From the NCBI GenBank assembly GCA_963748815.1, contig CAVVKJ010000010.1:576001-640000 (forward strand): a stretch of DNA of 64,000 nt, in the 5' to 3' direction. Made by a program: the position numbers and the translations under genes. Origin of the DNA: an uncultured Gemmatimonadales bacterium. GTDB lineage: Bacteria; Gemmatimonadota; Gemmatimonadetes; Gemmatimonadales; GWC2-71-9. The notes under the pieces are model-generated. The model did no database searches, was not told where the DNA came from, and worked only from the letters and a program-made list of their open reading frames with translations. This document shows, piece after piece, positions 987 through 19,193 of this stretch (its first letter is position 1; the number at the start of each line of letters is the position of its first letter).

Positions 987-1015
987 ACCCTAGCCGGGTG
1001 GCCCACGGTGGTCAA
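987..1015 (-). promoter_or_regulatory. Candidate sigma70 promoter TTGACC-N17-TAGGGT for the small ORF and tRNA-Val
   Basis: -35 at 1015-1010, 17-nt spacer, -10 at 992-987, 9 nt upstream of ATG 977. Confidence 0.5.
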
Positions 1016-1895
1016 GCGCATTTGCGTCGCTCGGCGGCGCCGGATCAGCCAGCGGCTCCTCGGGCGGATAGGTCCAGTCGAGGTTTAGCGCGGCCCGGCG
1101 CGGGGCGTCCCTGCGGCGGCGGGCCTCGTACCCCAGCGCCACGAGGAGCGCCATCCCGAGCCAGATGCCGGTCCCCAGCAACCAGGTCACGATCCCGAAC
1201 CGGGCCCGCACGCTCTTCCGCCAGGCCTCGTCGAACCGGTCGAGCGTCAACCCGGTCGTGGCCACGACCGCGTCCTCGAAGCCGACACCCTCCCCCAGCC
1301 GCTCGAAGAGCGGTTGCAGGGAGCCCGTTGGATTCCGCCGCGCCAGCTCCATGACCGCCGTGGCGGCCAGGGCATAGGCGGCGTCGGCGGATGGCTGGGA
1401 GGCCCGGAGTTCCCCGTCGAGCGCCCGGAGCCCGGGGATCGTCCCCTTGGCCACGGCGAGGTTGATCCCAACTCGGTCCAGGAGGTCCCACTGTCCGCTC
1501 GCCATCGTGGCGTATCCCTCGTCGAACCAGAGGGGCACTCGGCCGCGCACCGCCTGGTGCAGCGCGAGGTGGGCCAGCTCGTGACGCAGGGTCCCCATCA
1601 CGTCGCCCGCATCGGCGCGGAGTACGATGGTCCGGCCGCCTGGGAAGGCTGCGCCAGCGCCCCACCCCGGGAGCCGCCCACGCGTGAACTCGCGGAACGT
1701 CACCGAGTCGGCGGTGACGACCAGGCGAATCTCCCCGAGGTCGAGGGGACCGAGCCCAGGCCAGGGACCGGGCTGATCGGCGACCTCCGCCAATCCGATC
1801 GCCAGCGCCTCCTGCGCCGGCCAGGCCACGGCGGTTACCCGGCCGACCGTGACCGCGGAGGGCTGCCCCTGCCAGAGGGCCAGCGCGAGAATCAG
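990..1895 (-). CDS. Peptidase MA-like (zincin) metallohydrolase with C-terminal TM helix; probable CTG start at 1895 (ORF track uses GTG 1829)
   Basis: HELAH (HExxH) and downstream PLWFDEGYA third-ligand motif; in-frame upstream LILALALWQGQP begins at a CTG overlapping the TGA of the upstream gene. Confidence 0.8.
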   Translation of the reverse strand: MILALALWQGQPSAVTVGRVTAVAWPAQEALAIGLAEVADQPGPWPGLGPLDLGEIRLVVTADSVTFREFTRGRLPGWGAGAAFPGGRTIVLRADAGDVMGTLRHELAHLALHQAVRGRVPLWFDEGYATMASGQWDLLDRVGINLAVAKGTIPGLRALDGELRASQPSADAAYALAATAVMELARRNPTGSLQPLFERLGEGVGFEDAVVATTGLTLDRFDEAWRKSVRARFGIVTWLLGTGIWLGMALLVALGYEARRRRDAPRRAALNLDWTYPPEEPLADPAPPSDANALDHRGPPG

Positions 1896-2764
1896 GCTGG
1901 CGAATGTCGAGGGATATCTCCTCCCGCGGCGGCCACTTCAAGCAACTCCCGGCACCGCTTGCCCCAGGGGTTGAACTTGTTGGCCTTGTGCCCGTCGGTC
2001 CACGCCTGTCGCGCATCGTCCGCCCGCCCGAGAAACCAGAGCGCCCGGCCCAGTTCGTAGTACGCCTCAATCAGGTTGGGCCCGAGGGCCAGCGCCTTGC
2101 GGAAGAAGGCGTCCGCATCCTCGTACATTTCCCGCTCCTGGTACACCAGCCCCAGGTAGAAGTGCGCGTAGAGCGTGGCCTTCCGGTCGTTGTCCAGGCG
2201 GATGGCACGGGACAGATGCTCGATGGCCTCCCCGAAGATCCCCTTCTTGAGGCAGATATACCCGACGTTGATGCGCGCGAGCGCATTGGCCGGCTCCCGC
2301 ATGAGGACCTTGGAGAAGGTGCCGAGCGCCTCGTCATACTGCTCGGACAGCATCTGGGCCCAGCCGAGGAGCGAGAGCGCCTGCGTATCCTCCGGCGATA
2401 GTGCGAGGGCCTTCTCGAGCGACTGGATGGCCGCGGGGAAGTCGCCCAGGGAGATCAGGCTCCACCCCTTCTCGATGAAGGTGGAAGCGCCGAGGTGATC
2501 GGCCTGCAGGACCGGCCTGGCCCCGGAGAATTGCGGCGCCGCCCCGCCCTCCGCGTCGGCGGACAGCTGCTTATACTGCTCCACCAATCCCCGAATCTGT
2601 TCCTTCAGCGCGGTGAGTTCGCCGAGCGCCCCATCCACGCGCTTGAAATAGGCGACGATGTCGCGCTTGACCGCCTGGCGCTCCCCGCCGGCGGGGCTCG
2701 CGTCGAGCCGGGCGGCGAGCGCGGCGTATTCGTCACGCATGCCGGCGAGCCAGTCCTCGGTCAC
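1892..2764 (-). CDS. TPR protein with N-terminal coiled coil
   Basis: Repeated TPR helices (KGWSLISLGDFPAAIQSLEKALALSP; HFYLGLVYQEREMYEDADAFFRKALALGP); start overlaps the cheW stop. Confidence 0.88.
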   Translation of the reverse strand: MTEDWLAGMRDEYAALAARLDASPAGGERQAVKRDIVAYFKRVDGALGELTALKEQIRGLVEQYKQLSADAEGGAAPQFSGARPVLQADHLGASTFIEKGWSLISLGDFPAAIQSLEKALALSPEDTQALSLLGWAQMLSEQYDEALGTFSKVLMREPANALARINVGYICLKKGIFGEAIEHLSRAIRLDNDRKATLYAHFYLGLVYQEREMYEDADAFFRKALALGPNLIEAYYELGRALWFLGRADDARQAWTDGHKANKFNPWGKRCRELLEVAAAGGDIPRHSPA

Positions 2765-3222
2765 GTGGCGGCGGCCTCGAGCTGGAGGCGTTCCTCGCTG
2801 CTGAAGAGGCGGCCCGCCTGCAGCAGGATGACCGTCCGGTCCTCGAGGGTCAGCACGCCCAGGATGTATTTCGCGGCCAGGCCGCGGACCATGGGCGGCG
2901 AGGGTGCGATCCGGCGGCTGTCCACGCGGAGCACCTCCCGGACTCCGTCCACCACCATCCCGACACGCTGGCCGTCCATCGTGACGATCATGACGCGGGT
3001 CTCTTCCACCTGGGTGGCGGGGAGTTCGAGCCGTTTGCGCAGGTCCACGACCGGCACGACGCCGTCCCCGTACGGAAGGACCCCCTCGAGGAAGTCCGGT
3101 GCGCTGGGCACCGGGGAGGGCGCCTGATACCGGAGGATCCGGTCCACCTGGGAAATTTCCAGGGCGAACTCCTGGCTTCCCCCGCGAAAGATCACCACCT
3201 GAATGTCGTCACCGGTCGTCAT
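2761..3222 (-). CDS. cheW: CheW coupling protein
   Basis: VVIF..G.QEFALEISQVDRIL, PVPSAPDFLEGV, VPVVDLRKRL, VGMVVDGVREV. Confidence 0.93.
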   Translation of the reverse strand: MTTGDDIQVVIFRGGSQEFALEISQVDRILRYQAPSPVPSAPDFLEGVLPYGDGVVPVVDLRKRLELPATQVEETRVMIVTMDGQRVGMVVDGVREVLRVDSRRIAPSPPMVRGLAAKYILGVLTLEDRTVILLQAGRLFSSEERLQLEAAAT

Positions 3223-3653
3223 GGACCGCGCTTCCCCCCCAGGAGTCGGACTCCCAGGGCCTTGAGGTCAAGAATCGGCACCAGCACACCGTCGCGCCGC
3301 GCCACGCCGAGCGCCCAGGGCAGCGACTCTCCCGCGGGGACCGGCACCACCTCCTCGGCGAGCACCGCCTCGGCGCCGTCGACTTCCAGGCAGATCCGCT
3401 GGCGGCCCGCCCGAGCGAGCACTCCCACCGCGCCGACCGTTGCCGGGCAGGCGCCGCCCCAGAGCACCGTCGAGAGGTTCACCACGGGCACCAGGCGTTC
3501 CCGCACCGCCACAACGCCCCGCACCGCCGCATCGGTCGTCGGGACCGGAAAGGTCGTCGCGAGGTCCACGACTTCCAGCACTTCGGCCACTTCCAGGCCG
3601 ACGTCCCGCCCTCCCACCTGCACGAGGAGGTACTGGCAGGTCCCGGCGGTCAC
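3219..3653 (-). CDS. cheW: Divergent CheW-like protein
   Basis: [44 protein letters not shown]. Confidence 0.85.
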
Positions 3654-4696
3654 GCGACGTTCATCCGCGCGAGCAGGGTGGAGACCCGCTCGCCGACATC
3701 GGAGACCGGGAGCACGAGGTCGGCCCCGCCGGCCGCCTGCGCCTCCTTCGGCATCCCGAAAATCGTGGAGCTCTCCTTGTCCTGCGCGATGCCCTTCCCG
3801 CCGGCGTCGTGAATCTGGCGGAGTCCCTCCGCGCCGTCCCGGCCCAGGCCGGTGAGCACGACGCCGATGGCGCGCCGCCCGAACAGCTGCGCCACGGAGC
3901 GAAAGAGGGGATCCGCGGCCGGGCGGACGCCCCAGAGCGGCGGCTCCTGGTCCAGCGCGAGCGCCAGCCCGTCGCTCCCCTCGGTCACTCGCATATGATA
4001 ATCCCCCGGGGCGATGTAGGCGGTGTCGGAGACGAGCGGCGCCCCGTGCTCCGCCTCGACCACCGCCAGGTCGCTCTGCGCCGAGAGTCGCTCGGCCAGG
4101 CTCCGGGTAAACCGGGGCGGCATATGCTGCACGATGACCACCGCCGCGTTGTGGCCGCGGGTGATCCGGGGAACGACCTCCGCCAGCGCGCGCGGGCCGC
4201 CAGTGGACGCCGCGATGGCCACGCAGAAGCGCGCCCGGCCCGGCAGCGCGAAGAGTCCGGCGGGCAGGTCGGGCCGGTTCGGGCGGGCAAGCATCGGCAG
4301 GCGGTAGATGTCCGCCGCGCGCGCGGCCCGCAGCGCCTCGAGCACCCGCGCCCCGAACCGGCCGCGCGAGGCCTCGTCGCGGCCCGCCTCCTTGGCCACC
4401 AGTTCGACCGCGCCGAGCTCGAGCGCGCGGATGGCGCCCGCTGTGCCTGGCCCGGCGTACGAACTGACGACCACGACGGGGCGCGGCGCCTCCGACATCA
4501 GGTAGCCGATGGCCCCGAGGCCATCGAGTTCGGGCATCTCGAGGTCCATGGTCACCAGGTCGGGCTGGTACTCGTGGACCTTTCGAAGCGCGTCCAGCCC
4601 GTTCCGCGCCGTGGTCACCACGCGAAACTCGCCGGAGCCGTCGATGATCTCGGTGAGGAGCCGCCGGATCAGGGCGCTGTCGTCCGCCACGAGCAC
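3650..4696 (-). CDS. cheB: Chemotaxis methylesterase CheB (receiver plus methylesterase); start could extend to ~4714
   Basis: Receiver LVADDS...[14 protein letters not shown]; catalytic [19 protein letters not shown]. Confidence 0.96.
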
Positions 4697-4706
4697 CGTC
4701 GGGAGG

Positions 4707-5195
4707 CTAGAGATGCGTCACTCCCCGGCGGACCGTCGACACTTCAATGCGGCCGTCGGCCACGAAGAGCCGCACCGTGCGTCCGAAGTCGCCGCCGACT
4801 TCGCTCCCGACCAGCGGGATCGCGTGGTGGGCGAGCGCCGCCCGCACCGCCACCAGGTTTCGCTCCCCCATCTGGATGGTGCCGACCGGCTGCAGGTTGG
4901 TGAACATCGACGCGCCGCCGGCGAGCCGCGCGGTGATCCGCGATGCCCGCGCCCCCAGGCCGACCATGTCCTGCAGCAGGAGCGGAATGGCCGTCTGCGG
5001 GAACTTGCCTGGGCTCTGGTCTCGCCGACTGAGCGCGGGCGACGGCAGCAGGATGTGCGCCAGCCCGCCCACCTTCGCCTCGGCGTCGTGGAGCATCACG
5101 GCGACACAACTTCCCAGGCCGATGGTCAGCAGGACATCGCCGTGACCCCCGGCCTTGTATTCCGCCACGTGCACCACAATTTCGCCCGAACTCAT
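4707..5195 (-). CDS. cheD: Chemoreceptor glutamine deamidase CheD
   Basis: [40 protein letters not shown]. Confidence 0.95.
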
Positions 5196-6013
5196 GCCGC
5201 CCTCCGAAAGATGCGTTCACGGGCGTCGACCAGGGTCAGGCGTTCCCGGGCGACGCCCAGCAGCGTTTCGACCTTGCCCAGCACGAGGATGCCGCCGGGC
5301 AGCAGCGCCTCGGCGAACTGCGCGAAGAGCCGTTCCTGCATCGGGCGATCGAAATAGATCACCACGTTTCGGCAGAAGATGAGGTCGTACGCCGCCGAGG
5401 GGATGGGTTCCCGCGTGAGGTCCAGCCGGCGCACCGTGACCATCCGCCGGACGGCCTCGCTGACCTGCCAGGACGCCCCGGCCGGCGTGCAGTACTTCTC
5501 GGTGATCCACGCCGGGGCCTCGAGAAACGCGGCCTGCGGGTAGAGCCCGGCTGCGGCGCGTTCGAGGCTCCCCCGGTCGATGTCCGTGGCGTCGATGCGC
5601 ACCCGATCGGACCAGGAGGGATGCCCGATCGCCGCCGCGGCCTCCGCGCAGAGCATGGCCAGGGTGTACGGCTCCTCGCCGGAGGAGCAGCCGGCGCTCC
5701 AGGCGACCAGCCGCCCGCTCCGCGCCTCGAGCAACCCGGGCAACAAGTCGGTCCGCAGTCGATCCCACGTTTCCGAATTCCGGTAGAAGCGCGTCACGTT
5801 GATGGTGAGCGCATCCTTGAGCTTGTCCCACTCGTCCGGCTTCCGGTCGAGCACCGTCATGTACTCGGCGTACGTGTGCACTCCGCACGCGCGCATCCGG
5901 ACGAGGAGACGGCGCCGGAGACACTTGTCCTTGTAGGCGTCGAGTGTAAGTCCCGCCTCGCGGGACACCCGGCGCGTCAGGGACTTGAACCCCTCCTCGT
6001 CGTCCATGGTCAT
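5192..6013 (-). CDS. cheR: Chemotaxis methyltransferase CheR
   Basis: LTINVTRFYRN, WSAGCSSGEEPYTLAM, ATDID, DLIFCRNVVIYFD. Confidence 0.96.
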   Translation of the reverse strand: MTMDDEEGFKSLTRRVSREAGLTLDAYKDKCLRRRLLVRMRACGVHTYAEYMTVLDRKPDEWDKLKDALTINVTRFYRNSETWDRLRTDLLPGLLEARSGRLVAWSAGCSSGEEPYTLAMLCAEAAAAIGHPSWSDRVRIDATDIDRGSLERAAAGLYPQAAFLEAPAWITEKYCTPAGASWQVSEAVRRMVTVRRLDLTREPIPSAAYDLIFCRNVVIYFDRPMQERLFAQFAEALLPGGILVLGKVETLLGVARERLTLVDARERIFRRAA

Positions 6014-7629
6014 GCCGGCACGTCCAGGATCTCGAGGTTGGAGCGCGCGAGCTGATGGCCGGGGTTCAGCTCGGCGGCCCGGCGCCAGCAGTCCCGGGCC
6101 CGATCGCGATCGCGCTGCCGGAACGCCAGGTTTCCCAGCTTGAAGTAGAGGTCATCGCCGAGGTCGGGCGCCAGCTTGGCGGCGCGATCGAAGGCGGCCT
6201 GCGCATCGTCATACCGCCCCGCGCGGTAGAGCAAGTCGCCCAGGTTCTTCGAAAGCTGGGGGAGGCTCGGCTCGTCGGCGAGCGCCGCGCGGAGCAGCCG
6301 TTCCGCCTCGGGCAGGTCGCCGGTCGCCTCGAGGAGCATCGCGAGATTGTTGCGCAGCACCGGATGCTGGGGCCACGCCTTCACGCCCTCCTGGGCGAGG
6401 GTGACCGCCCGCGGCAGGTCTCCGGCGGACCCCGCGGCGAGGGCGGCCGCCCAGAACCAGAGCGCAGGCACCGGCCGGTTCCCGAGCAGTTCCCGCGCCT
6501 TGGCCAACCGCCCCTCGGCCACCTCGGGGTCTTCTCGCTTGAGCGCGATGACGCCCCAGAGCAACATCGGCCGCGCATCCTCGCGCGCGCGCGACACCGC
6601 CTCCGCACCCGCCGCCTCCGCCTCGGCGAGCCGCCCCGCCCGCTCGAGCGCCAGCGCCAGGTTGTGCAGCCCAGCCGGCCGCGCCCCCCCGAGGTCGATC
6701 GCGCTCTGGAAGGCGGCCACGGCGTCGTCCCACCGCGCCTGCCGCAGCGCGATCAGGCCGAGGTAGAACGGCGCGTTGCCTTCCGCAGGGCGCAAATCCG
6801 CCACGCGGCGAAACTCCCGTTCCGCCTCCTCGAACATGCCGGTCTTGTAGAACGCGATGCCGAGGTTCCGATGCTCCTCCACCCGCGCGTCGTTGACCCG
6901 CTCCGACTGCTGCGTGGCGGAGGTCCCGACGCGGCGGACGAAGCCGGCGGAGAGGAGGCCGTAGATGGCCTTGCCGACCTCGAACTCCACCAGGCCGGAG
7001 GCGTCCACGACGTCCTGCACGTCGTTACGGCCGTTGAGGAGGGTGAGGATGGCCTCCTGCTCGTCGCTGAGCCGGACACCGGCCTCCTGCAGCCGCGGTT
7101 GGTCCACCTCGAACACGATGTCGAGCGTGGGAATCTTCTTGGCGATCAGGCTCCACTCGTCCACCCGCCGCGCCCCTTCGAGAAGCAGCGACTCCGGGTT
7201 GATGGACACCAGGAAGTCCTCGCGCTCCGGCCGCACGCCGGCCTCGAAGTTGAAGGTCCCGCTGCTCCACGTGAAGAGGTAGTACACCGCCTCCTCGACC
7301 TGCACCCGGATGTGGTCCTCGAGTTCGGCGCGGGTGATGTGCCCGAGCTCGACGAGGATCTCGCCGATCTTGCGATCCCGGTCCCCGGCCTGCCGATCCA
7401 CTGCGGCGCGGAGCTGCGCGTCGGTGATCCGCCCGTTGCGGACCAGCAGGTCGCCGATCCGGTCGCGCCGGTTGACGATCGAGGCGTAGATGATCCGGCC
7501 GTCGTCGAAGTAGGTATAGCCGAAGTTCTGCCGGTCGGCGACGGCCAGGCAGCCGGTCTTGCGGCCCAGCGCCAGGAGCTGGATCACGTCGGGGAGGCTG
7601 GCTTCCTTGAGGCTGCCCTTGATGGCCAT
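6010..7629 (-). CDS. DUF4388 (PatA-N-like) domain with MshEN-like insert and C-terminal TPR array
   Basis: MAIKGSLKEASLPDVIQLLALGRKTGCL...FTWSSGTFNF...ESLLLEGARRVDEW; RIGDLLVRNGRI/KIGEILVELGHI; multiple TPRs. ATG 7629 forms a TGATG overlap with the upstream gene. Confidence 0.88.
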   Translation of the reverse strand: MAIKGSLKEASLPDVIQLLALGRKTGCLAVADRQNFGYTYFDDGRIIYASIVNRRDRIGDLLVRNGRITDAQLRAAVDRQAGDRDRKIGEILVELGHITRAELEDHIRVQVEEAVYYLFTWSSGTFNFEAGVRPEREDFLVSINPESLLLEGARRVDEWSLIAKKIPTLDIVFEVDQPRLQEAGVRLSDEQEAILTLLNGRNDVQDVVDASGLVEFEVGKAIYGLLSAGFVRRVGTSATQQSERVNDARVEEHRNLGIAFYKTGMFEEAEREFRRVADLRPAEGNAPFYLGLIALRQARWDDAVAAFQSAIDLGGARPAGLHNLALALERAGRLAEAEAAGAEAVSRAREDARPMLLWGVIALKREDPEVAEGRLAKARELLGNRPVPALWFWAAALAAGSAGDLPRAVTLAQEGVKAWPQHPVLRNNLAMLLEATGDLPEAERLLRAALADEPSLPQLSKNLGDLLYRAGRYDDAQAAFDRAAKLAPDLGDDLYFKLGNLAFRQRDRDRARDCWRRAAELNPGHQLARSNLEILDVPA

Positions 7630-9626
7630 CAGCGCCACTCCTCGATCAGTCGCTCACCGAGGTCGGGCCATTCCCACACGCCCTTTTCCGGGCTGCGGAA
7701 GCCGCCCGCGCCCACGCCGCTGGTGCGGACGCCGGCGGCCGGCCGCGGCGCCTTCGGTGCGGCCCCTTCGAGCACCTCCCGCGCGAGGGCGACGTCCGGC
7801 TCGGCGTGGCGCGCGTCGGCGGCGGCCTCGATCCGCTGGACCAGCGCCTGCACCGCGCGCACCGACTCGGCGGGGCGGCCGGCGAGGTAACTCGCCAGCT
7901 CGGCGTCGGGCCGGTCGTACCGCGCGCCGAGGAGCCGCTCGATGACCGCCTGGCGCACCTCCCGCTCCGGTGGGGGAAGGTGCACCACGAGCCCACCCGT
8001 CAGCCGACTGGCGAGCCGCTCCTCGAGGCCCTCGATGGCGCCCGGCTCGTCGGAAGCGGTGAACACGAGCTGCGCACCCTGGTCGACGAGGTGGTTGAAG
8101 AGCAGGTACAGCTCCTCCTGCGTCCGCTCCCGATGGGCAAGGAGTTGGACGTCGTCGAGCAGCAGGGCGTTCACCCGCCGGTAGCGCGCGCGCCAGGGCG
8201 CGACCCGCTCCCGTTCGATGGCCTCGATGAGTTCCTCGGTGAAGTCCTGCGCATTCAGGCAGGCGACCACCGCGCCCGGCGCCGCCTGCAGCTGGTTTCC
8301 GACGGCGTGCAGGAGGTGCGTCTTCCCGACGCCGGCGCCGCCCACGATGACCAGCGGGTTGTAGGCGACGCCGGGCCGACCCGCCACCTCACGCGCGGAG
8401 CGCAGCGCCACCCGGTTCCCCTCGGACTCGACCAGGTCCTCGAAGACCCAGACTCCCTCGGGCCCCGGCGGAGGCGCGCCCCCCTCGCGCGCCCGGGCCA
8501 GGAACGCCTCGGCGGCGGGGACGCCGTCGGGGTCGCGGAACACCGGGTCGCGGCCCAGTTCCTCCGCCAGCGACGCCGCCTCCGCCTGCAACGCCTGGAG
8601 CCGCTCCACGTCGGCCACGAAGGACGAGAGCGCCTCCGCCGGGTCGCCATCGACGCTCCGCTCGAGGAGGCCGCGCAACCGGTCGGTGCGGTAGCCCTGT
8701 CCCTCCCAGCGCGCGACCGCCTCCTCCACCCGGCGCCGCCACCCTTCGACCTGCCGGGTGAGCGTGTCGGCCACCTCACTGAGGAACTCGCCGAACTCGT
8801 CGGCGGGCGGCTCCGGGTCGGCCGACGGCGAGGCGGTCGCCGCCACGGCCTCGGGACTCGGGACCTCCGCCGCGCTCGTTTCGGTGGCGGGGACATCCGC
8901 GGCCGTCGCACGGACGCCGAGCACCAGGCGCGCCTGCTCCGCATCGAGCGGGGCGTTCCCAACGGCCTGGAAAGCGACCAGCCGGTTCAGCGCGCCGACC
9001 AGTTCGCGCACGCTCTCGAGCGCGAGCGCCGCCACCGCCTCGAGGACGCCGGCCAGGAAGCTGACGCCGCGCTCCTCCGCCTTCCGGCGCAGGATCGCGA
9101 CGCGGGTCTCATAATCGGGCGCCGCGATGTCGATGACGAGACCGCCCGCCACTCGGCGGAGGAGCCGCTCGTCGAACGCCTCGATGTCCGCGGGGGGGCG
9201 GTCGCTGGTGAGGACGATTTGCCGACCCGCCGTCTGCATCTGGTCCACGAGGCGAAGGAGTTCGGCCTGCGTCTCCCGACGGTGGGTGACGAACTGCACG
9301 TCGTCGAGCAGGAGGATGTCGGCCTCGGCGAAGCGGCGACGGTAGGCGTCGCCCTGCCCTGCCCCGACCGCCGTGTGGAACGCCTCGACGAAGTCGTCGA
9401 GGGTCACGTACTCGACGCTGAGGGCCGGATCGATGGCCTGCGCCGCGTGGCCGATGGCCATGAGGAGGTGCGTCTTCCCCAACCCGGGCCGGGCGTAGAT
9501 GAAGAGGGGGTTGTAACCGGTGCCCGGCGATTCCGCGACCGTGCGCGCCGCCGTGGCGGCGAGGCGGTTGGCGGCGCCCACGACGAACCCGTCGAACCGC
9601 AGCTGCGGGCTCAGCTGGGTGGTCAC
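7629..9626 (-). CDS. Tandem DnaA/Hda-type AAA+ protein (two ATPase modules, no DnaA domain I or IV)
   Basis: Module 1: FDGFVVGAANRLA, YNPLFIY, GLGKTHLL, LLLDDVQF, SDRPP, VRELVGAL. Module 2: FEDLVESEGNRVA, YNPLVIV, GVGKTHLL, LLLDDVQL, RLASRLTGG. The protein ends about 45 aa after module 2. Confidence 0.9.
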   Translation of the reverse strand: MTTQLSPQLRFDGFVVGAANRLAATAARTVAESPGTGYNPLFIYARPGLGKTHLLMAIGHAAQAIDPALSVEYVTLDDFVEAFHTAVGAGQGDAYRRRFAEADILLLDDVQFVTHRRETQAELLRLVDQMQTAGRQIVLTSDRPPADIEAFDERLLRRVAGGLVIDIAAPDYETRVAILRRKAEERGVSFLAGVLEAVAALALESVRELVGALNRLVAFQAVGNAPLDAEQARLVLGVRATAADVPATETSAAEVPSPEAVAATASPSADPEPPADEFGEFLSEVADTLTRQVEGWRRRVEEAVARWEGQGYRTDRLRGLLERSVDGDPAEALSSFVADVERLQALQAEAASLAEELGRDPVFRDPDGVPAAEAFLARAREGGAPPPGPEGVWVFEDLVESEGNRVALRSAREVAGRPGVAYNPLVIVGGAGVGKTHLLHAVGNQLQAAPGAVVACLNAQDFTEELIEAIERERVAPWRARYRRVNALLLDDVQLLAHRERTQEELYLLFNHLVDQGAQLVFTASDEPGAIEGLEERLASRLTGGLVVHLPPPEREVRQAVIERLLGARYDRPDAELASYLAGRPAESVRAVQALVQRIEAAADARHAEPDVALAREVLEGAAPKAPRPAAGVRTSGVGAGGFRSPEKGVWEWPDLGERLIEEWR

Positions 9627-10225
9627 GCCGCGGTGTTCCCCGCCGCGAGGCGCTGGAGCACGAGTTCCGAAATCCCCTTGAGCGTCTCGAAGACGCCATG
9701 CCCGTGCAGGCAGTCGGCGCCGAAACTCCGGACGCCGCGGAAATTGAGGGCGTCGTCGAGTTCGGCCGGACTGAGGATCAGGTCCCGCGGGAGGTCTTGC
9801 TTGTTGTACTGGAAGACGACCGGCAGCTGCCGGATGTCGACCCCCTGGGCCAGGAGGTTTTCCTGCAGGTTCTGGAGGCTTTCCACATTGTCGTCGTACC
9901 GCCGGGCCTGGCTGTCGCCGACGAACACCACGCCGTCGGCGCCCTGAAGGACCAGCTTGCGGGTCGCGTTGTAGTACACCTGCCCCGGCACGGTGTAGAG
10001 CTGGAAGCGGGTGGTGAACCCGCTGATGCTGCCGAGATCGATCGGCAGGAAGTCGAAGAAGAGGGTGCGGTCGGACTGCGTGGCCAGCGACACCATCCGG
10101 CCGCGCCGCCCCTCGGGCACCCGGCCGTAGATGTATTGCAGGTTCGTCGTCTTGCCGGACCGCCCAGGTCCGTAATAGACGATCTTGCAGGTGATTTCCC
10201 TGGTCGTGAAGTTGACGAGCGACAT
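9623..10225 (-). CDS. mglA: MglA-family small Ras-like GTPase
   Basis: REITCKIVYYGPGRSGKTTNL, DRTLFFDFLP, LYTVPGQV, GADGVVFV.DSQ, QYNKQDL: near-identical layout to Myxococcus MglA. Confidence 0.95.
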   Translation of the reverse strand: MSLVNFTTREITCKIVYYGPGRSGKTTNLQYIYGRVPEGRRGRMVSLATQSDRTLFFDFLPIDLGSISGFTTRFQLYTVPGQVYYNATRKLVLQGADGVVFVGDSQARRYDDNVESLQNLQENLLAQGVDIRQLPVVFQYNKQDLPRDLILSPAELDDALNFRGVRSFGADCLHGHGVFETLKGISELVLQRLAAGNTAA

Positions 10226-10228
10226 CCG

Positions 10229-10690
10229 TTACCGTCCGAACAGCGAGCGGAGGCTCGCGTTGAGTTCATTTTCGAAGTCCGCCGCGAGCACCTCGCGCGC
10301 GGGCGTGTCCGCTGGAGCCACCGCGCGGAGCTCCTCGACGAGCCGATCGAAGAAGAGCCGCACCAGGCCGAGCGAGCTGTCGCGGTCGTAGACCACCAGC
10401 CCGATCCATCGGCCCTGTGGGAGGTCGAACCCGGCCAGGAAGAGCCCCCGCGACGGCCCCTGGTGGCTGAGTGAACGCGAGGCGCCGGAGGCGGTGAGCC
10501 GTCCCAGCTCCTCGGTGCTGGCCATGATCGCGGCCCCGAGCGCGGAAGCTGACATCACATCGAGCGCGCGGGTGAACCCGTGCTGCGCCACCACCTGACC
10601 CGACGAGGTGGTCAGGAGCACCACCCGGGCGGAGGATTCGGTGAGGAAGCGTTGCAAGGGTTCGGCCACCCAGGGCTCGATGACGCGCAT
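10229..10690 (-). CDS. mglB: MglB-like roadblock/LC7 protein with C-terminal amphipathic helix
   Basis: MRVIEPW...FLTESSARVVLLTTSSGQVVAQHG...SALGAAIMAST..L...VVYDRDSSLGLVRL...DFENELNASLRSLFGR; directly upstream of mglA. ATG at 10690. Confidence 0.8.
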   Translation of the reverse strand: MRVIEPWVAEPLQRFLTESSARVVLLTTSSGQVVAQHGFTRALDVMSASALGAAIMASTEELGRLTASGASRSLSHQGPSRGLFLAGFDLPQGRWIGLVVYDRDSSLGLVRLFFDRLVEELRAVAPADTPAREVLAADFENELNASLRSLFGR

Positions 10691-11040
10691 CAGCCGACCT
10701 GGTCCGCGGCCCGCCGCAGTTCGAGTCGCACCAGGCCGACATTCACCTCGGGGTCCGTCACCGCCACGACCAGCAGGTCTCCCGGGGCTGGCACCGCCAT
10801 CAGGCCGCCGCCGTTGGCGCGGAGATGCACGAAGGCCGGAGCCGTCCGCCCGGCCGCCTCCGTGGCGCGCGCCAGCCGGGCCACGACGCCGGCGGTCAGC
10901 GCGGCCACCGCCGCGCCGTCGATCCCCTCCATCGACGACTCCGCCACCACCAGCCCCTCCTCGGCCGATACAACCATGGCACCCCGCACCCCGCGCACCC
11001 GGGTGATCGACTCCAGCGAGGCGGTGATGTCGGTCCTCAT
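10690..11040 (-). CDS. Roadblock/LC7 domain protein (MglB/MglC-like)
   Basis: LESITRVRGVRGAMVVSAEEGLVV...AVAAL...VNVGLVRLELRRAA; ATG 11040 overlaps the upstream TGA. Confidence 0.88.
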   Translation of the reverse strand: MRTDITASLESITRVRGVRGAMVVSAEEGLVVAESSMEGIDGAAVAALTAGVVARLARATEAAGRTAPAFVHLRANGGGLMAVPAPGDLLVVAVTDPEVNVGLVRLELRRAADQVG

Positions 11041-11888
11041 GCCGCCCCCTCCAGCCACCGGCGCGCGGCCTCGGAGGCACGTTCCGCCTGGAGCGCCAGC
11101 CGGCCGATCGGCACACTGTTGTCGCGGACGAGCAGGAGGAGCGACTCCGACGTCGGGGCGCAGAGGAAGAGGTTCGCGTCGGCGGTTTCCGCGGCGACGC
11201 TGGTCCATGACCCCAGCGAGAGCAGCCGGGCCGCCCGCTCGGCGTCGCGGAACACACCCGCGAGATGCGCCGACACCGCATCGCCGACGGCAGTGCCGTC
11301 GGGTGCCGAGAGGCCGCCCCCGAGCCGCAACCCCTCGCCGTCGAGCAGCAGCAGGCCGTCGTGCGCCCCTTCCAGCCCGGCGAAAATGGCGGGACGATCC
11401 ACCTCGCCACCGGCGCGCAGCGTGGCGGCCACGGGGCCGCTGTCCACCGGGCCGCGGGGCGGCGGGGCGGCGGCACCAGGAACCGCGAGGGCCTCACGCA
11501 CGCGCTCGACCGCCGCGGCCACACCTTCGGCCTCGGGATCGGCCTTCAACGCCGACTCCAGATGTTCAAGCGCCTTGGGCAGGTCGCCCGCCACGTAATA
11601 GAGGAACCCGATCCCCTTGTGCGCCCCCGCATGCCGGCCATCGAGTCGGAGGGCAATGTCCCACTCGTCGAAGGCGCGCTCGAGGTCACCCTGGTCGCCG
11701 AGGATTCGGGCCAGGAGGTCGTGCGCGTCGGCCAGCTCCGGATACCGGGTGAGCCCGGCGATCGCGACCTTTCCCGCCGCCTCCAGCTGCCCGCGGCGGC
11801 GCAGCGCCTCCCCGAGCGGCAGGAAGACCAGGCTCGACGGATCGGCCGCAAGCCGCGCGGTCAGGACGCGGATGTCTTCATTGCTCAC
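11037..11888 (-). CDS. TPR plus roadblock/LC7 fusion protein
   Basis: GTG start MSNEDIRVLTARLAADPSSLVFLPLGEAL; TPR repeats; C-terminal roadblock-like GLLLLDGEGLRLGG...VSAHLAGVFRDAERAARLL...PIGRL. Confidence 0.82.
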   Translation of the reverse strand: MSNEDIRVLTARLAADPSSLVFLPLGEALRRRGQLEAAGKVAIAGLTRYPELADAHDLLARILGDQGDLERAFDEWDIALRLDGRHAGAHKGIGFLYYVAGDLPKALEHLESALKADPEAEGVAAAVERVREALAVPGAAAPPPRGPVDSGPVAATLRAGGEVDRPAIFAGLEGAHDGLLLLDGEGLRLGGGLSAPDGTAVGDAVSAHLAGVFRDAERAARLLSLGSWTSVAAETADANLFLCAPTSESLLLLVRDNSVPIGRLALQAERASEAARRWLEGAA

Positions 11889-13035
11889 GGCGTCCTCCCA
11901 ATGCGTCCTTGAGGGTGTGCACGGCGGCGCGCCAGCGGCGCACCGTCTCTTCCCGGCCCCGTTCACCGTCGGGCCAGGACTCCAGCGCTTCCCAGCGCGC
12001 CCAGGCCTCGAGCGCCGCACCGAACTGCGCCCGGCCCGCCTCCGCCAGCCCAAGCAAGCGAAGCGCAGCGGGGGCGTCCGGCTCGCAGCGCAACGCCTGG
12101 TTCAAGCGAAGCACCGCCTCGTCGTACCGCGCCTCCTGCAGCAGCACCCGCCCAAGCACCAGGTGGGCGGCCCCCTCCTCCGGGAAGGCCAGCACCGCCT
12201 CCTCCGCGGTGAAGCGGGCCCGCGCCACCTCGCCGAGCAGCAACGCCTCCTCCGTCGCGGCGACCAGCACCGCCAGGTCGTGCACCGGCGACTCGGCCTC
12301 CTGGCCGGAGGGCGTCGGCTCCGCCACGCCGATGACCCCGGCCGAGGCCAGGCCGAAAAGCGTCCGCGCCACGTCGAAGTCCGACCGCCCCAGCTGTGCC
12401 GCAAGGGAGCGGACGTCGGTCATCCCGTCGATCCCGGCGAGCACCTCCCACTCGAAGGGGAGGAGGTCGAGCTGCCCGCCGTCGTCGGCGGCCGACCCGG
12501 TGAAGCGGGGGATGACGCCGAGGTGCGGGACCTTGGCCTCGATCCGGGACCACTCGTCGATCCGACGGGCCGCTTCCATCAGCAGCGACTCGGTGGGAAT
12601 GCGAATCGTCGCTTCCCCCAACGAGTCGGGGAGCGGCCCGTCCTCGAACGAAAAATAGCCTTCCGACCAGCTCATCAGCTCAAAAATGACCTCCTCGACC
12701 TGGATCCGGATCTGGCGCTCCAGCTCCTTCTTGGGCAGCGCCCCGATTTCCACCAGAATGTCGCCCAGGCGATGCCCAGGTCGCGTGCGCTGGATGGCCG
12801 CCGCCCGGGCGACGTCGTCTTCCCGGACCTTTCCGGTACGGACGAGTAACGCCCCGAGCGGGTGCGGATTGCTTCGAATCTCGGCGGCAATGACGCCGCC
12901 CACGTTGAAGTACACGACCCCCGCGTTCTGGCGCAGCTCGGAGGTGACCCGCAACACCCCTGTCTTCCGGCCCAGGTCGAGTAGCTGGAAGACGTCATGG
13001 ATCTGCAGTTCCTTCAGCGGGCCTTCGATCGGCAC
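11878..13035 (-). CDS. DUF4388 domain with MshEN-like insert and TPRs (paralog of 6010-7629)
   Basis: MPIEGPLKELQIHDVFQLLDLGRKTGVL...MSWSEGYFSF...ESLLMEAARRIDEW; RLGDILVEIGAL. Confidence 0.87.
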   Translation of the reverse strand: MPIEGPLKELQIHDVFQLLDLGRKTGVLRVTSELRQNAGVVYFNVGGVIAAEIRSNPHPLGALLVRTGKVREDDVARAAAIQRTRPGHRLGDILVEIGALPKKELERQIRIQVEEVIFELMSWSEGYFSFEDGPLPDSLGEATIRIPTESLLMEAARRIDEWSRIEAKVPHLGVIPRFTGSAADDGGQLDLLPFEWEVLAGIDGMTDVRSLAAQLGRSDFDVARTLFGLASAGVIGVAEPTPSGQEAESPVHDLAVLVAATEEALLLGEVARARFTAEEAVLAFPEEGAAHLVLGRVLLQEARYDEAVLRLNQALRCEPDAPAALRLLGLAEAGRAQFGAALEAWARWEALESWPDGERGREETVRRWRAAVHTLKDALGGRREQ

Positions 13036-13038
13036 CGG

Positions 13039-15732
13039 TTACTCCGCCGCGGCGGTGAAGATGTGCACCAGGTCCCGCGTCGAGCGGAGCTGGTTGCGCG
13101 CCGCCGAGGCCAGCGCGCCCCCCGGATCGGTGCGCACCACGCGTTCCCACTGGTCCGAGGCCTCGCGGTAGCGTCGGACGCGCACCAGCGCCGCCCCATA
13201 GGCGAGTCGGGCCTGGCCCGCCTCGGGATCGAACCGGAGGACGCGCTCGAACGCCTCGATCGCCTTGTCGGCGCGACCATCCTCGAGCAGCAGCTCGCCG
13301 AGCAGCGTCAGCGCCTCGAGATCCCACGGGTCGGCGCCGAGCAGGGCGATCAGCGGCGCCATCGCGGTCTTCGGCGTGTCGATCCGTCGGAGCAGCCGGG
13401 CGAGGGCGCGCGCCGCCTCGGAGTATGTCGGCAGCAGGTCCAGGGCCCGCTGGAAGGCGAGGCGCGCGCCGGTCCAGTTGCTCCGTTCCTCCTCGAGCGT
13501 TCCCAGTTCAAGCCAGACCTGGACGAGTCCGCTGTCGAGTTGCAGCGCCGCCTGGTACGCGTCGAGCGCGGCTTCCCGCTCGCCGAGGCGGCGGGACACC
13601 CCGGCCTGGAGCTGCAGGAGGTCGGGCCGGCCGGGGGCGCGCGACTGCGCCTCGCGCAGCGCGTCGAGCGCACGGACCGGATCGCCGGTGGCCAGGCGGA
13701 CCCGGGCACAGGCAACAAGCGCCTCGACGTGGTTCGGCGCGAGCTGGGCCAGTCCTTCCGCCCCCGCCGCCGCCTCCTCCGCCCGGTCGAGGGCGAGGAG
13801 GGAGCGGACCTCTCCCAGCAGCGCGTTCACGTCGGCGGGATCGGCGGTGCGCGCCTCGCGATAGCGCTCGAGCGCTTCGCCGTGCAGCCCGCGCTTGCCG
13901 AAGATGTCGCCGAGGAGCACGGCCACCCGGGCGCGGGAGGCGCCGCGGCTGATGGCCCGCGTCAGCTCTGCGGAGGCCAGCTCGAGCAGGCCCTTGCTGA
14001 TGTAGTCGCGCGCGAGCGACAGCGCCGCGTCCTCGGCCGCCGGCGGCGTGGCCGCGACAGGCGCTTCGGGCGCCAGGTCCTCGAAGATGCCCTCGAGCAG
14101 CGTGGCGTCGAAGACGAAGGAGTCGCCGAGGTCGGTCGCCGTCACGTCGGCGCTGATCTCCGGGACGATGGCGATCAGCGGGTCCTCGTACTGCAGGTCG
14201 ATGGAGAGCTGGAACTTCTGTTGGATGTAGTAGGGCTCGAGCTCCAGGGCGCGCTTGGTGGCGCGGAGGGCACCATCGAAATCGCCCAGCTGGCTGAGGG
14301 TGAAGCTCAGGTTGTAGTGCGCCGAGGCGTACTCGGGGGACGCGTCCACCGCGCGGGCAAAGGCGTTCTTCGCGTCCGCGTACCGATGGAGCTCCATCAG
14401 CACGAGGCCGATGCCGTTCCAGGCGGCGGCGTTGGTGGGATGGTCGCCCAGCACGGCGCGATAGGTCTCCAGCGCCGGCTGGAACCGCCGGAGCTGAAAG
14501 AGCAGCAGCGCGAGATTCAGGCGTGGCGCCGCGAGATCGCGCCGGACCTGCAGGGCGGCGCGGAACGCGGCCTCCGCCTCGCCGCTTCCCGGGTCGTGGG
14601 CCAGGAGCACGCCGAGATTGTTCCAGGCGAGCGCGTAGTCGGCGTCCAGCGAGATGGCGTGCTCGTAGGAATCGCGTGCCGCGTCCCGGCGCCCCGCCTG
14701 GTGCAGGCAGACGCCGCGCTCGTTCCAGACCTTCGGCGAGTCGGCGTGCTCCTCGACAAGGGCGTCGTACAACTCCAGCGCCCCGGCGAGGTCCCGCCGC
14801 AGGAGGTGCACCTCGGCCATGGCCTGCAGGGTCAGGCGGCGGTCTTCCCCGTGGTCCAGCGCCATCCGGTACTCGCGGAGCGCCTCGGGGTAGTAGCCCT
14901 TTTGCCGGAAGGCGAGCCCGAGGTTGAAATGCGCCAGCGTGCTGCCCTCGGCGAGCGCGGGACGCATCGAATCGGCCAGCGACTGCCGGCCCGGCATGGA
15001 GCCGTCGTCGGGATGCTCGATGGTGAGGTTGGCCTGGGCGCGCCCGAGGGTGGGATTGAGCGCGATGGCCCGCTTGGTCGAGGCGCGGGCGTCGTCGTGC
15101 AGCCCCATGTCGCCGAGGACGAAGGCCAGGAGGTAGTGCGCGTCGGCGTAGTCGGGGTTGCGGTGCACCGCCTGCCGCAGCGTTTCGAGCGCCGCCTCGT
15201 TCAGCCCGCGGTTGTAAAGCGCCTCCCCGTAGTAGAAGAGCGCGACGGGGCTGTCGGGATCCTGCTCCGCCGCCTGGCGGAACCAGTCCTCCGCCACTTC
15301 CACGCGCCCCCGGGCCTTTTCGGCGAGGCCGAGCTGGAGCAGCGCGGGGATGTCATCGGGGTGCCAGGCGAGGAGTGCCTCGAACTCGGCGACCGCCTCG
15401 TCGGTGTGCCCGAGCGCGGCATAGGCGCGCGCCAGCTCCCACCGGGCTTCCCGGTCGCCGGCCTCGCGGCGGAGCCGCTCGCGGAGTTCCGTGACCCGCT
15501 GGTCGTAGTACCCGCTGGCCCGGTAGGTGATTTCGAGGTTGCCCTGCGCCACCTGCATGCGGGGATCGAGCTCGAGGGCGCGGGAGAATTCGGCGACGGC
15601 CTCGGGGATGAGGCCCTTCTGGTAGTACAGGACGCCGAGGTTGTTGTGCGCCCCGGCGTCGGACGGGTCGATGCGGCGGGCGAACGACCGCAGGACCGCG
15701 AGGTCCCGTTCGGGCAGCGCCGGACCGCCCAT
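13039..15732 (-). CDS. Large multi-TPR scaffold protein (897 aa)
   Basis: Many canonical TPRs (AHNNLGVLYYQKGL, AHFNLGLAFRQKG, AWNNLGVLL, AHYNLSFTL). Confidence 0.9.
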   Translation of the reverse strand: MGGPALPERDLAVLRSFARRIDPSDAGAHNNLGVLYYQKGLIPEAVAEFSRALELDPRMQVAQGNLEITYRASGYYDQRVTELRERLRREAGDREARWELARAYAALGHTDEAVAEFEALLAWHPDDIPALLQLGLAEKARGRVEVAEDWFRQAAEQDPDSPVALFYYGEALYNRGLNEAALETLRQAVHRNPDYADAHYLLAFVLGDMGLHDDARASTKRAIALNPTLGRAQANLTIEHPDDGSMPGRQSLADSMRPALAEGSTLAHFNLGLAFRQKGYYPEALREYRMALDHGEDRRLTLQAMAEVHLLRRDLAGALELYDALVEEHADSPKVWNERGVCLHQAGRRDAARDSYEHAISLDADYALAWNNLGVLLAHDPGSGEAEAAFRAALQVRRDLAAPRLNLALLLFQLRRFQPALETYRAVLGDHPTNAAAWNGIGLVLMELHRYADAKNAFARAVDASPEYASAHYNLSFTLSQLGDFDGALRATKRALELEPYYIQQKFQLSIDLQYEDPLIAIVPEISADVTATDLGDSFVFDATLLEGIFEDLAPEAPVAATPPAAEDAALSLARDYISKGLLELASAELTRAISRGASRARVAVLLGDIFGKRGLHGEALERYREARTADPADVNALLGEVRSLLALDRAEEAAAGAEGLAQLAPNHVEALVACARVRLATGDPVRALDALREAQSRAPGRPDLLQLQAGVSRRLGEREAALDAYQAALQLDSGLVQVWLELGTLEEERSNWTGARLAFQRALDLLPTYSEAARALARLLRRIDTPKTAMAPLIALLGADPWDLEALTLLGELLLEDGRADKAIEAFERVLRFDPEAGQARLAYGAALVRVRRYREASDQWERVVRTDPGGALASAARNQLRSTRDLVHIFTAAAE

Positions 15733-15735
15733 TGA

Positions 15736-16356
15736 TCAGCCGACGCGAATGGCGTCGAAAATGGCCCGCAGCGACGCCAAGTCGGGCAGGAGGAGGAAGT
15801 GCCCCTTCAGGTTGGACGTGTCCCCCTCGAACTGGAACTCGGACTCGACGCAGAAGACGTAGTCGCGCTCCGAGCCGAAGTTGAGGTAGGTCGAGGTCAG
15901 CACCGCGGCGCTGAGGTCCACGACGAGGCTGGGCACCGAGGGCACCAGCATCATCCCCATGAAGTCGCTGAGCGCGTTCAGGTAGGCGCTGCTCAGGATG
16001 TTGCCGACCTCCTTGATGCCCGACTGCTCCATCACGCCGAACTCGGTGGTGGTGCCGGGCGGGCGCCGAAGCAGTATATCGCAGAGGGCGTAGGCGGACG
16101 GTTCCGGGAAGAGGAGGAGGGTCCGCCCGGTCAGGTCGCCCATCATGTGCATCAGGACGGCGGCCACCACTTCCTCGGGGTCGCCGAGGACCTCGGGCAC
16201 TTCCTCGAGCGGCGTGACCGTGACCTCGGGCACGCTGATCATGATCTTCTTGTTGGTCATCTGGGAGAGCGCCGTGGCGGCGTGCCCCGCCCCGATGTTC
16301 GCCACCTCCTTGAGGGCGTCGAACTGGAGCTCCTTCAGATCGCGCACGTCTTCCAT
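15736..16356 (-). CDS. cheC: Chemotaxis phosphatase CheC
   Basis: DALKEVANIGAGHAATALSQM and SGIKEVGNILSSAYLNALSDF (two ExxN active sites); ATG 16356 follows GGAG. Confidence 0.95.
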   Translation of the reverse strand: MEDVRDLKELQFDALKEVANIGAGHAATALSQMTNKKIMISVPEVTVTPLEEVPEVLGDPEEVVAAVLMHMMGDLTGRTLLLFPEPSAYALCDILLRRPPGTTTEFGVMEQSGIKEVGNILSSAYLNALSDFMGMMLVPSVPSLVVDLSAAVLTSTYLNFGSERDYVFCVESEFQFEGDTSNLKGHFLLLPDLASLRAIFDAIRVG

Positions 16357-16366
16357 ACGAGTCTCC

Positions 16367-18334: not shown

Positions 18335-18338
18335 GGCG

Positions 18339-18701
18339 TCAGCCGAGGACGCGCTGTACCGCCTCGAGCACCCGGGATGGTTGGAAGGGCTTCACGACGA
18401 AATCCTTGGCGCCGGCCTGGATCGCCTCGACGACGAGGGCCTGCTGCCCCATGGCGCTGCACATCAGGATCCTGGCCTCGGGCGATTCCCGACAGATTTC
18501 GCGGACGGCGTCGATACCGCCCATATCGGGCATGACAATGTCCATGGTGACGAGATCGGGCTTGAGCTGGCGGTACTTCTCGACCGCCTGCACCCCGGTC
18601 TCGGCTTCACCCACCACCTCGAAGCCCGCCTGGGTGAGAATGTCGCTGATCATCGTCCGCATGAAGATGGCATCGTCGCACACCAGGACCGTGTGGCTCA
18701 C
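18339..18701 (-). CDS. cheY: Chemotaxis response regulator CheY (Firmicute/Thermotoga/archaeal style)
   Basis: VLVCDDAIFMR, KPDLVTMDIVMPDMGG, CSAMGQQALVVEAIQAGAKDFVVKPF. Confidence 0.95.
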   Translation of the reverse strand: MSHTVLVCDDAIFMRTMISDILTQAGFEVVGEAETGVQAVEKYRQLKPDLVTMDIVMPDMGGIDAVREICRESPEARILMCSAMGQQALVVEAIQAGAKDFVVKPFQPSRVLEAVQRVLG

Positions 18702-18719
18702 AGGTCAGTCTCCAGGCGT

Positions 18720-19193
18720 CTAAGAGGGTCGTGAAAAGGAGCGGTCGGCGCCGCTGGCGGCGCTGAGCAGTGGTGCCAGCAGCGCCTCGGTATCGAGTAC
18801 CACAAAATGGCGGCCATCCCTGCGTCCAACCGCCTTGACCAGCCTGACATCGACCCCCGGTAGCGCCTCGCGCGCCTCCAACTGGTCGGCCGGGAGTTCG
18901 AAGAGGTCGTCCACCCGCCCCACCGCAAGCCCGAGACGGCGCGTCCCAACATCGACGATCAGCAGGGCGCCCTCGTGCTCGGGCAACCGCGGCCGGTCAA
19001 GCAGGCGATGGGCGTCCACCACGGTCAACAGCGTACCCCGCACGTTCACCAGCCCGATGATGGTATCGGGGGCTCCGGGGATCCGGGTTGTCGGAAGGGG
19101 CGCCAGGATTTCGCGGGCACGGCTGGCGAGCATCCCGCAGGCCAGGTTGCCCACCTGAAATACCACGACGCGCACCGCCTGAGAGTCAGCCAT
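18720..19193 (-). CDS. cheW: CheW coupling protein
   Basis: ATG 19193 MADSQAVRVVVFQVG; TRIPGAPDTIIGLVNVRGTLLTVVD; LGLAVGRV. Confidence 0.9.
   Translation of the reverse strand: MADSQAVRVVVFQVGNLACGMLASRAREILAPLPTTRIPGAPDTIIGLVNVRGTLLTVVDAHRLLDRPRLPEHEGALLIVDVGTRRLGLAVGRVDDLFELPADQLEAREALPGVDVRLVKAVGRRDGRHFVVLDTEALLAPLLSAASGADRSFSRPS

Follow-up and report, generated by a model that had tools for sequence, protein, structure and literature searches.

In a 64,000-nucleotide stretch of DNA from an uncultured Gemmatimonadales bacterium (GenBank assembly GCA_963748815.1, contig CAVVKJ010000010.1, positions 576,001 to 640,000; here called the window), a 665-residue open reading frame (ORF) on the reverse strand (7629..9626) encodes a tandem of two DnaA-domain-III modules. 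The lineage lives in soil and water. The DnaA ATPase core is known from replication, in DnaA and Hda. The tandem protein is real, conserved and, by membership, neither DnaA nor Hda. We consider it reasonably probable that it is an ATP-gated adaptor for the DUF4388(PATAN)–MshEN–TPR protein encoded directly downstream, with binding, ATPase activity and output all predicted; the output is probably type IV pili. The results derived in this analysis are a series of microproteins left where the ATPases were lost, an asymmetry between the two modules and a repeat shared with archaea. A literature search of main texts returned nothing on the tandem protein or on archaeal DnaA-like fusions, and 'DnaA' does not occur in the main text of PMC3914693 or PMC6393860.

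All features described here lie on the reverse strand. Module 1 (8919..9614, residues 5–236) has an intact ATP pocket, with changes in its single-stranded DNA (ssDNA) residues and in part of its finger face. A Pro/Ala linker of variable length (8808..8918) leads into a middle helical domain (8451..8807, residues 274–392), which begins with an acidic amphipathic helix bearing EFxxFL (8736..8804, residues 275–297). Module 2 (7764..8450, residues 393–621) retains the finger face and the initiator-specific motif, has a decayed sensor I and is missing in some lineages. The protein ends in a Trp tail, EKxxWxWP...RxxEE (7632..7700, residues 643–665), which is retained in all forms. The two initiator ATPase modules and motifs described in an earlier, sequence-only reading are all present in the translation: YNPL at residues 38 and 422, Walker A at Lys51 and Lys435, Walker B at Asp108 and Asp491, box VII at Arg154 and Arg158 and at Arg537 and Arg541, sensor II at Arg207 and Arg590, and the Trp tail at 647–665. 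One detail had to be corrected. The SDEP said to replace the SDRP of DnaA in module 2 was off by one in register; in the alignment Ser525 takes the place of the Asp of sensor I, and what module 2 has lost is sensor I itself. The modules are 37% identical to one another, and the GC content at third codon positions is 0.92. An AlphaFold model of the 665 residues (mean predicted local distance difference test (pLDDT) 88.8, predicted template modelling score (pTM) 0.75) shows a disordered linker (pLDDT below 50 at 239–278) and a C-terminal end made of a loop and one short helix; despite that linker, the pTM suggests that the modules are held in a fixed mutual arrangement.

Profile searches gave the predicted outcome of two Bac_DnaA matches (315.5 bits, E = 1e-94) and neither Bac_DnaA_C (PF08299) nor DnaA_N among 14 Pfam families at E ≤ 0.01. 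Domains I and IV are missing, as had been claimed: module 1 starts at residue 5, and PF08299 has no match. The protein passes the DnaA model TIGR00362 (458.8 bits, cut-off 343.9) as the sum of two stretches, scores below the cut-off of the Hda model TIGR03420 (162.4 against 194.8) and falls far below those of NF005982 and NF006571. The expected canonical dnaA is present elsewhere in the genome, which is 86% complete: a 461-residue dnaA lies on contig C19, followed by a 375-residue ORF, recognised by eye, that we take to be dnaN. The genome holds three Bac_DnaA matches (two in the tandem, one on C19) and a single Bac_DnaA_C match (on C19). The fusion is not an assembly artefact, with two Walker A pattern matches per ORF in 64 of 71 tandem ORFs from 70 genomes. 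A promoter scan found nothing.

Distribution, synteny and loss of the ATPase modules

A 60-row profile of the middle domain was used to map the family over 151 genomes of the phylum, our own included. It matched 100 and found nothing in 51. By group, the carriers comprise 70/72 genomes of f1, 22/31 of f2, 2/2 of f3, 1/1 each of f4 and f5, 2/2 of f8, 1/16 of f7 and 0/25 of f6 and f9–f12, as well as our own genome; homologues of the tandem are assigned in their sources to Gemmatimonadales, Gemmatimonadetes and Longimicrobiales. The unpublished genomes G055 (locus L014) and G095 (L090, L245) are within these tallies and the counts below, and no conclusion rests on them. Searches of plasmids and phages matched 67 and 39 records, respectively, none of which holds a tandem or covers 80% of the protein.

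Synteny was read in 82 loci chosen non-randomly, 70 of them as the 30 best matches plus 40 for spread, and 12 because they looked odd. The order cheY–cheA–cheC–TPR–DUF4388–roadblocks–mglA–tandem–DUF4388–cheR–cheD–cheB–cheW–TPR–peptidase is widely kept, with cheR/D/B missing in L057, L069, L070, L072, L247 and L250. In the window, the tandem start overlaps the stop of an mglA-like small GTPase gene (9623..10225) by four bases (GTGA), and the tandem stop overlaps the start of the DUF4388–MshEN–TPR gene (6010..7629) in TGATG; stop and next start overlap at 55 of 71 ORF ends. This downstream partner is constant, following the tandem in 80/80 loci with DNA available (L052 and L240 stop at contig ends). 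The reported link to mglA holds here and in 78 of the 82 loci and fails in the other four; because the DUF4388 gene follows in every case, the tie to MglA is weaker than first proposed. G114 carries the tandem and the DUF4388 gene without an adjacent mglA, and the Walker A of its module 2 is dead. As far as 20 reference proteins mapped, no replication gene adjoins the tandem in any of the 82 loci. In the single-contig genome G125 (L071), the tandem occupies two ORFs through a frame change in the linker; two loci have frameshifts in the tail.

The ATPase modules have been lost in several genomes. G047, G082 and G104 lack module 2 and encode only module 1, the middle domain and the tail. G112, G034, G045, G050, G070 and G072 lack both ATPases, and the ORF in the tandem's slot encodes 69, 73, 72, 86, 60 and 60 residues, respectively. 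These microproteins of 60–86 residues consist of two motifs, the acidic helix and the Trp tail. Profiles of the helix (275–297) and tail (643–665), built solely from full-length proteins, both matched all six among 1404 frames (tail 13.5–29.8 bits, helix 14.5–27.3), and in our own genome they convincingly match the tandem gene only. A separate search for shorter proteins returned four short matches, possibly fragments. In a quick DUF4388 tree (one row removed for a frame slip), the six ATPase-less genomes fall in two places inside tandem-bearing clades, and G112 stands beside the single-module G082 with a Shimodaira–Hasegawa-like approximate likelihood ratio support of 95. The loss series therefore marks the ATPases as add-ons and the helix and tail as what survives. 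The MshEN insert of the DUF4388 partner is also lost in five of the six. No mglA precedes the microprotein in G070, G072 and G050; G034, G045 and G112 keep mglA without the ATPases.

Residue asymmetry and the proposed adaptor function

To describe the modules residue by residue, 96 tandems were compared with 107 canonical DnaAs, using residue numbers and roles as given in the parts of PMC6669920 and PMC10721633 drawn on here; the division into two interface faces is our own reading of the legend order in the former. The Walker, sensor II and tail residues are near-invariant over the 96 sequences, down to 35% identity, and the Walker A Lys is present in 96/96 first and 95/96 second modules. A full ATP pocket is found in 91 of 96 first modules and only 11 second modules (75 if sensor I is ignored). 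Module 1 retains sensor I (93/96), F218 (86/96), E314 (89/96) and G317 (91/96), and it has His at I190 (73/96), Glu at the 224 position (89/96), Arg at H231 and no R206. Module 2 retains R202 (93), R206 (90), E228 (95), R264 (93), N234 (87) and L269 (94, each of 96), with sensor I in just 17/96. The arginine-finger Arg is present in 80 first and 93 second modules. The ssDNA residues I190 and K222 are I/V (84/96) and K/R (80/96) in module 2, against His (73/96) and Arg (75/96) in module 1. W267, found in 78/86 and 21/21 canonical DnaAs, is Gly in module 1 (89/96) and module 2 (81/96); Gly also stands there in 29 of 33 archaeal modules and in 2 of 107 canonical DnaAs. This asymmetry fits a module 2 finger acting on the ATP of module 1. 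Head-to-tail chains could still form, because the second interface survives in part (module 1 finger in 80/96, module 2 Walker A in 95/96).

These patterns suggest an adaptor in which the acidic helix and Trp tail would be the working part, docking on the co-translated DUF4388(PATAN)–MshEN–TPR protein. The modules would form an intramolecular pseudo-dimer, the arginine finger of module 2 reaching the ATP site of module 1 much as neighbouring protomers pair in a DnaA filament, and the nucleotide state may expose, hide or cluster the docking motifs. The complex might then pass CheA/CheY, MglA/MglB and cyclic di-GMP (c-di-GMP) signals on to machinery at the cell surface, with type IV pili the likeliest candidate; this is the weakest step. 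Flagellin was found in only 25 of the 100 carriers, so the cluster can do without flagella; PilM was found in 97. In our own genome, PilB/PilT-like ATPases are present and flagellin has no match. The sequence-only proposal that an initiator ATPase was repurposed as a switch in a signalling and polarity locus thus gains from the synteny, the separate canonical dnaA and the loss patterns, and loses on the MglA side.

Several points weigh against the adaptor. PilM is present in 143 of the 151 genomes and therefore does not single out the carriers and proves little. The genomes are kin, and so their counts are not independent. Translational coupling could explain why neighbours are retained together just as binding could, and in G112 the microprotein gene stands 106 bp from the DUF4388 start. 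Module 2 keeps I190/K222-type ssDNA residues that an adaptor does not need. No natural fusion to the DUF4388 protein appeared in a search for longer proteins, which was a weak search. Separately, the gap in G112 (L241:7987-8093) holds short tandem repeats of about 15 bases.

Two alternatives are unlikely to a similar degree. In the first, the protein would regulate replication by co-assembling with, or capping, the real DnaA filament through an Hda-like module 2 finger, tying initiation to the signalling locus. With the DnaA finger face almost fully kept on module 2 and the pocket face on module 1, docking on DnaA is conceivable at either end; in addition, the tests discussed below leave descent from the host dnaA unrejected. 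Six genomes, however, have deleted both ATPases while keeping a remnant of the gene, 51 of 151 genomes have no detected middle domain, and no replication genes adjoin the 82 loci as far as the reference proteins mapped. Domain IV is missing, the Hda model is below cut-off, W267 is Gly in both modules and similar modules occur in archaea. An Hda-type N-terminal clamp-binding motif was not seen at the N terminus, where LNPRxRF of the family aligns to the LNPxYTF segment of DnaA (LNPKYTF).

In the second, the protein would chiefly serve MglA as an effector, or polymerise into a polar scaffold, and the DUF4388 link would be secondary. It draws on the mglA gene directly upstream in nearly all loci, on the Walker A Lys and mostly kept fingers of both modules, which would suffice for head-to-tail chains, and on one archaeal DnaA–DUF835 gene that adjoins two Ras-like genes. 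G114 and the three genomes that retain mglA without the ATPases argue the other way, as do the decayed finger face of module 1 (R206 and H231 lost) and the lost sensor I of module 2.

A sensor of single-stranded nucleic acid or of a dinucleotide is very improbable. It would use a pocket for base capture where module 2 meets module 1; in DnaA, one protomer contributes R202/E228 to this pocket and its neighbour E183/N187, according to the part of PMC10721633 drawn on here. Module 2 has the R202/E228 pair, D/E and E stand at E183/N187 in module 1, and the partner protein carries a c-di-GMP motif. The pocket residues also make the filament interface, however, as described in part of PMC6669920; module 1 has His at I190 and Glu at the 224 position; and a single interface has room for no more than one trio-sized unit. 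A dnaA duplicate decaying as a passenger of the operon, as the repeated loss or decay of modules, the split ORF of G125 and the tail frameshifts might indicate, is largely refuted by the near-invariant motifs and by the middle domain in 100 of 151 genomes, and its probability is negligible.

Archaeal repeat proteins and the origin of the modules

The middle-domain profile matched 491 representatives at E ≤ 0.001, and 28 of the 150 listed carry 4–24 copies; among these 28, five also match Bac_DnaA, two DUF835 and two, weakly, KaiC. Ten clusters were looked up, of which four were Thermoplasmata/Thermoplasmatota and one Wallbacteria. Bac_DnaA was found at E < 1e-30 in 29 of 250 genomes of Thermoplasmatota. 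In 20 archaeal loci that were read, 10 DnaA proteins have 4–8 repeats and one has a single match; in others, the DnaA module is joined to DUF835, TPR or HEAT, or to a PilB-type ATPase within a pilin operon. For a reciprocal test, a profile free of Gemmatimonadota rows was made from 78 repeats in 17 multi-repeat proteins. Of 20,537 frames, it gives the tandem gene the top rank (E = 4.5e-7, against 0.24 for the runner-up) and exceeds 15 bits in 66/71 tandem ORFs, 0/71 reversed and 0/355 shuffled sequences; the test is not fully independent, since it was the bacterial profile that had led to these multi-repeat proteins. By these profile matches, the middle domain is assigned as one unit of an unnamed helical repeat, present in 4–8 copies in the DnaA-fused proteins of archaea (Thermoplasmata). 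Foldseek gave no match to its fold at E ≤ 0.001, the Atlas no usable match and Pfam only coiled-coil matches below cut-off; the best VIA match (Z = 6.0, root-mean-square deviation (rmsd) 6.8) was to generic helices. These results do not show a new fold.

Further proteins carry the repeat. P0098, P0105 and P0169 (2300–3100 residues, two in clusters named Wallbacteria) consist almost entirely of it, in 14–24 copies. Paralogues without an ATPase (L248:4363-6360 in G048, and also P0226 and P0229) have an N-terminal domain, the middle domain and a tail-like end, the N-terminal domain of P0226 with a weak Fe_hyd_lg_C match; the middle domain is therefore able to move to other proteins. In G171 (L222:9856-12294), a gene flanked by pilin and T2SSF genes joins an archaeal DnaA ATPase module to a PilB/T2SSE ATPase, and in G241 (L236:6235-10840) a DnaA–DUF835 gene lies beside two Ras/Roc-like GTPase genes. 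A Thermoplasmatales bin (L144) has a contig with a clostridial-looking yidC–rnpA–dnaA, domain IV included, which is probably contamination. The archaeal N-terminal domain was considered as a DUF4388 relative, in a fusion argument, and rejected: profile–profile probabilities were 1–6%, the best among eight domains compared and yet non-significant. DUF2226 matched one of seven archaeal N termini scanned. DUF835 has been called an inactivated KaiC output domain in a passage of PMC5847659.

In the trees, each tandem module forms its own clade. Two archaeal DnaA–DUF835 proteins fall next to module 1 in an unstarred grouping, and neither module groups with the host DnaA; 42 of 130 rows were left out as long branches or near-copies. 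Against module 1, our own DnaA scores 133 bits, Priestia DnaA 187 and the protein P0147 184. Approximately unbiased tests on 55 rows leave a host dnaA origin unrejected (P = 0.51 and 0.39), and nine columns are shared with DnaA of the host phylum as against two with archaeal modules, a difference possibly due to shared high-GC bias. As outgroups, 80 loci were taken from a genome scan with P0147, and nearly all are canonical bacterial dnaA. Locus L005 (4560-4810) has several repeated units upstream of the canonical dnaA, with a repeated peptide in both reading directions.

It is possible, though we hold this only tentatively, that the DnaA ATPase core and the helical repeat are one ancient signalling cassette, which Gemmatimonadota and Thermoplasmata share through descent or transfer and which acts as a switch on PATAN-type adaptors and on pilus motors. 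The bacterial tandem would then be a self-contained DnaA filament with a single interface, serving as a molecular switch. In both bacteria and archaea, the DnaA ATPase core has apparently been turned to signalling in company with an unnamed repeat. The tandem would offer a minimal, naturally occurring model of a single DnaA–DnaA interface, and a natural 60-residue microprotein a ready probe for binding partners of PATAN/DUF4388. Annotation and origin prediction are misled, as the tandem passes the DnaA model cut-off and databases name it 'chromosomal replication initiator'.

The gene cluster and known systems

The name MglA for the GTPase, whose small_GTP and Arf matches are below or near cut-off, is our assumption from its motifs and an mglB neighbour. 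Upstream of it, profile matches identify an mglB-like gene, a roadblock gene and a TPR–roadblock gene (10229..11918), then a second DUF4388–TPR gene and an 897-residue TPR gene (11878..15732); Pfam assigns cheC, cheA, cheY and cheW (15736..19355). Downstream of the partner gene, whose DUF4388 domain contains an MshE-related c-di-GMP-binding motif (7306..7461; 47.3 bits, cut-off 38), Pfam assigns cheR, cheD, cheB, two cheW, a TPR gene and a Peptidase_MA_2 gene (990..6013). In most loci, reduced ones like L063 among them, this last gene (990-1829) ends the cluster. No receptor gene was found in the scanned cluster region; three MCP domains lie elsewhere in the genome. Four genomes of different families carry another mglA-like gene (G027:C34:11235, G104:C4:16185, G047:C96:3894, G114:C2:44731), which has a single in-frame TGA, possibly selenocysteine or read-through.

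Compared with domain III of Bacillus subtilis DnaA (8bv3/8btg), the tandem has the same fold and motifs, with 40% identity and an rmsd of 1.3 Å over 234 columns, but it has two modules, no domains I, II or IV, a novel middle domain and tail, Gly at W267, asymmetric decay and a place in a signalling cluster. Hda and HdaA are also DnaA-like ATPase modules without a DNA-binding domain, and the tandem, like them, may donate an arginine finger; they score 51–66 bits, against 154–187 for DnaA, and have one module where the tandem has two.

Closer in setting are the Myxococcus MglA–SgmX–SopA system and the cyanobacterial PATAN regulators, where type IV pili are steered by a chemosensory pathway together with a small GTPase and with roadblock, TPR and PATAN proteins; no DnaA-type ATPase is described there in the parts of the sources drawn on here (PMC11580455; 10.1101/2021.06.11.447907). 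The same parts report control of PilB by MglA through the TPR protein SgmX (PMC11580455), and that PATAN is DUF4388, with regulators binding PilB1/PilC in Synechocystis and mglAB lying near PATAN genes (10.1101/2021.06.11.447907). The text drawn on from PMC4316618 places Gemmatimonadetes MglA in group 1 with no mention of DnaA, and mglA of M. xanthus apart from its partners' genes.

The DnaA proteins of Thermoplasmatota that lack domain IV share with the tandem the ATPase module, Gly at W267 and the helical repeat directly ahead of the ATPase. They differ in having one ATPase, 4–8 repeats, a DUF2226-like N-terminal domain and zinc ribbons, with no match to the tail or helix motif and no mglA or che genes in the 20 loci read.

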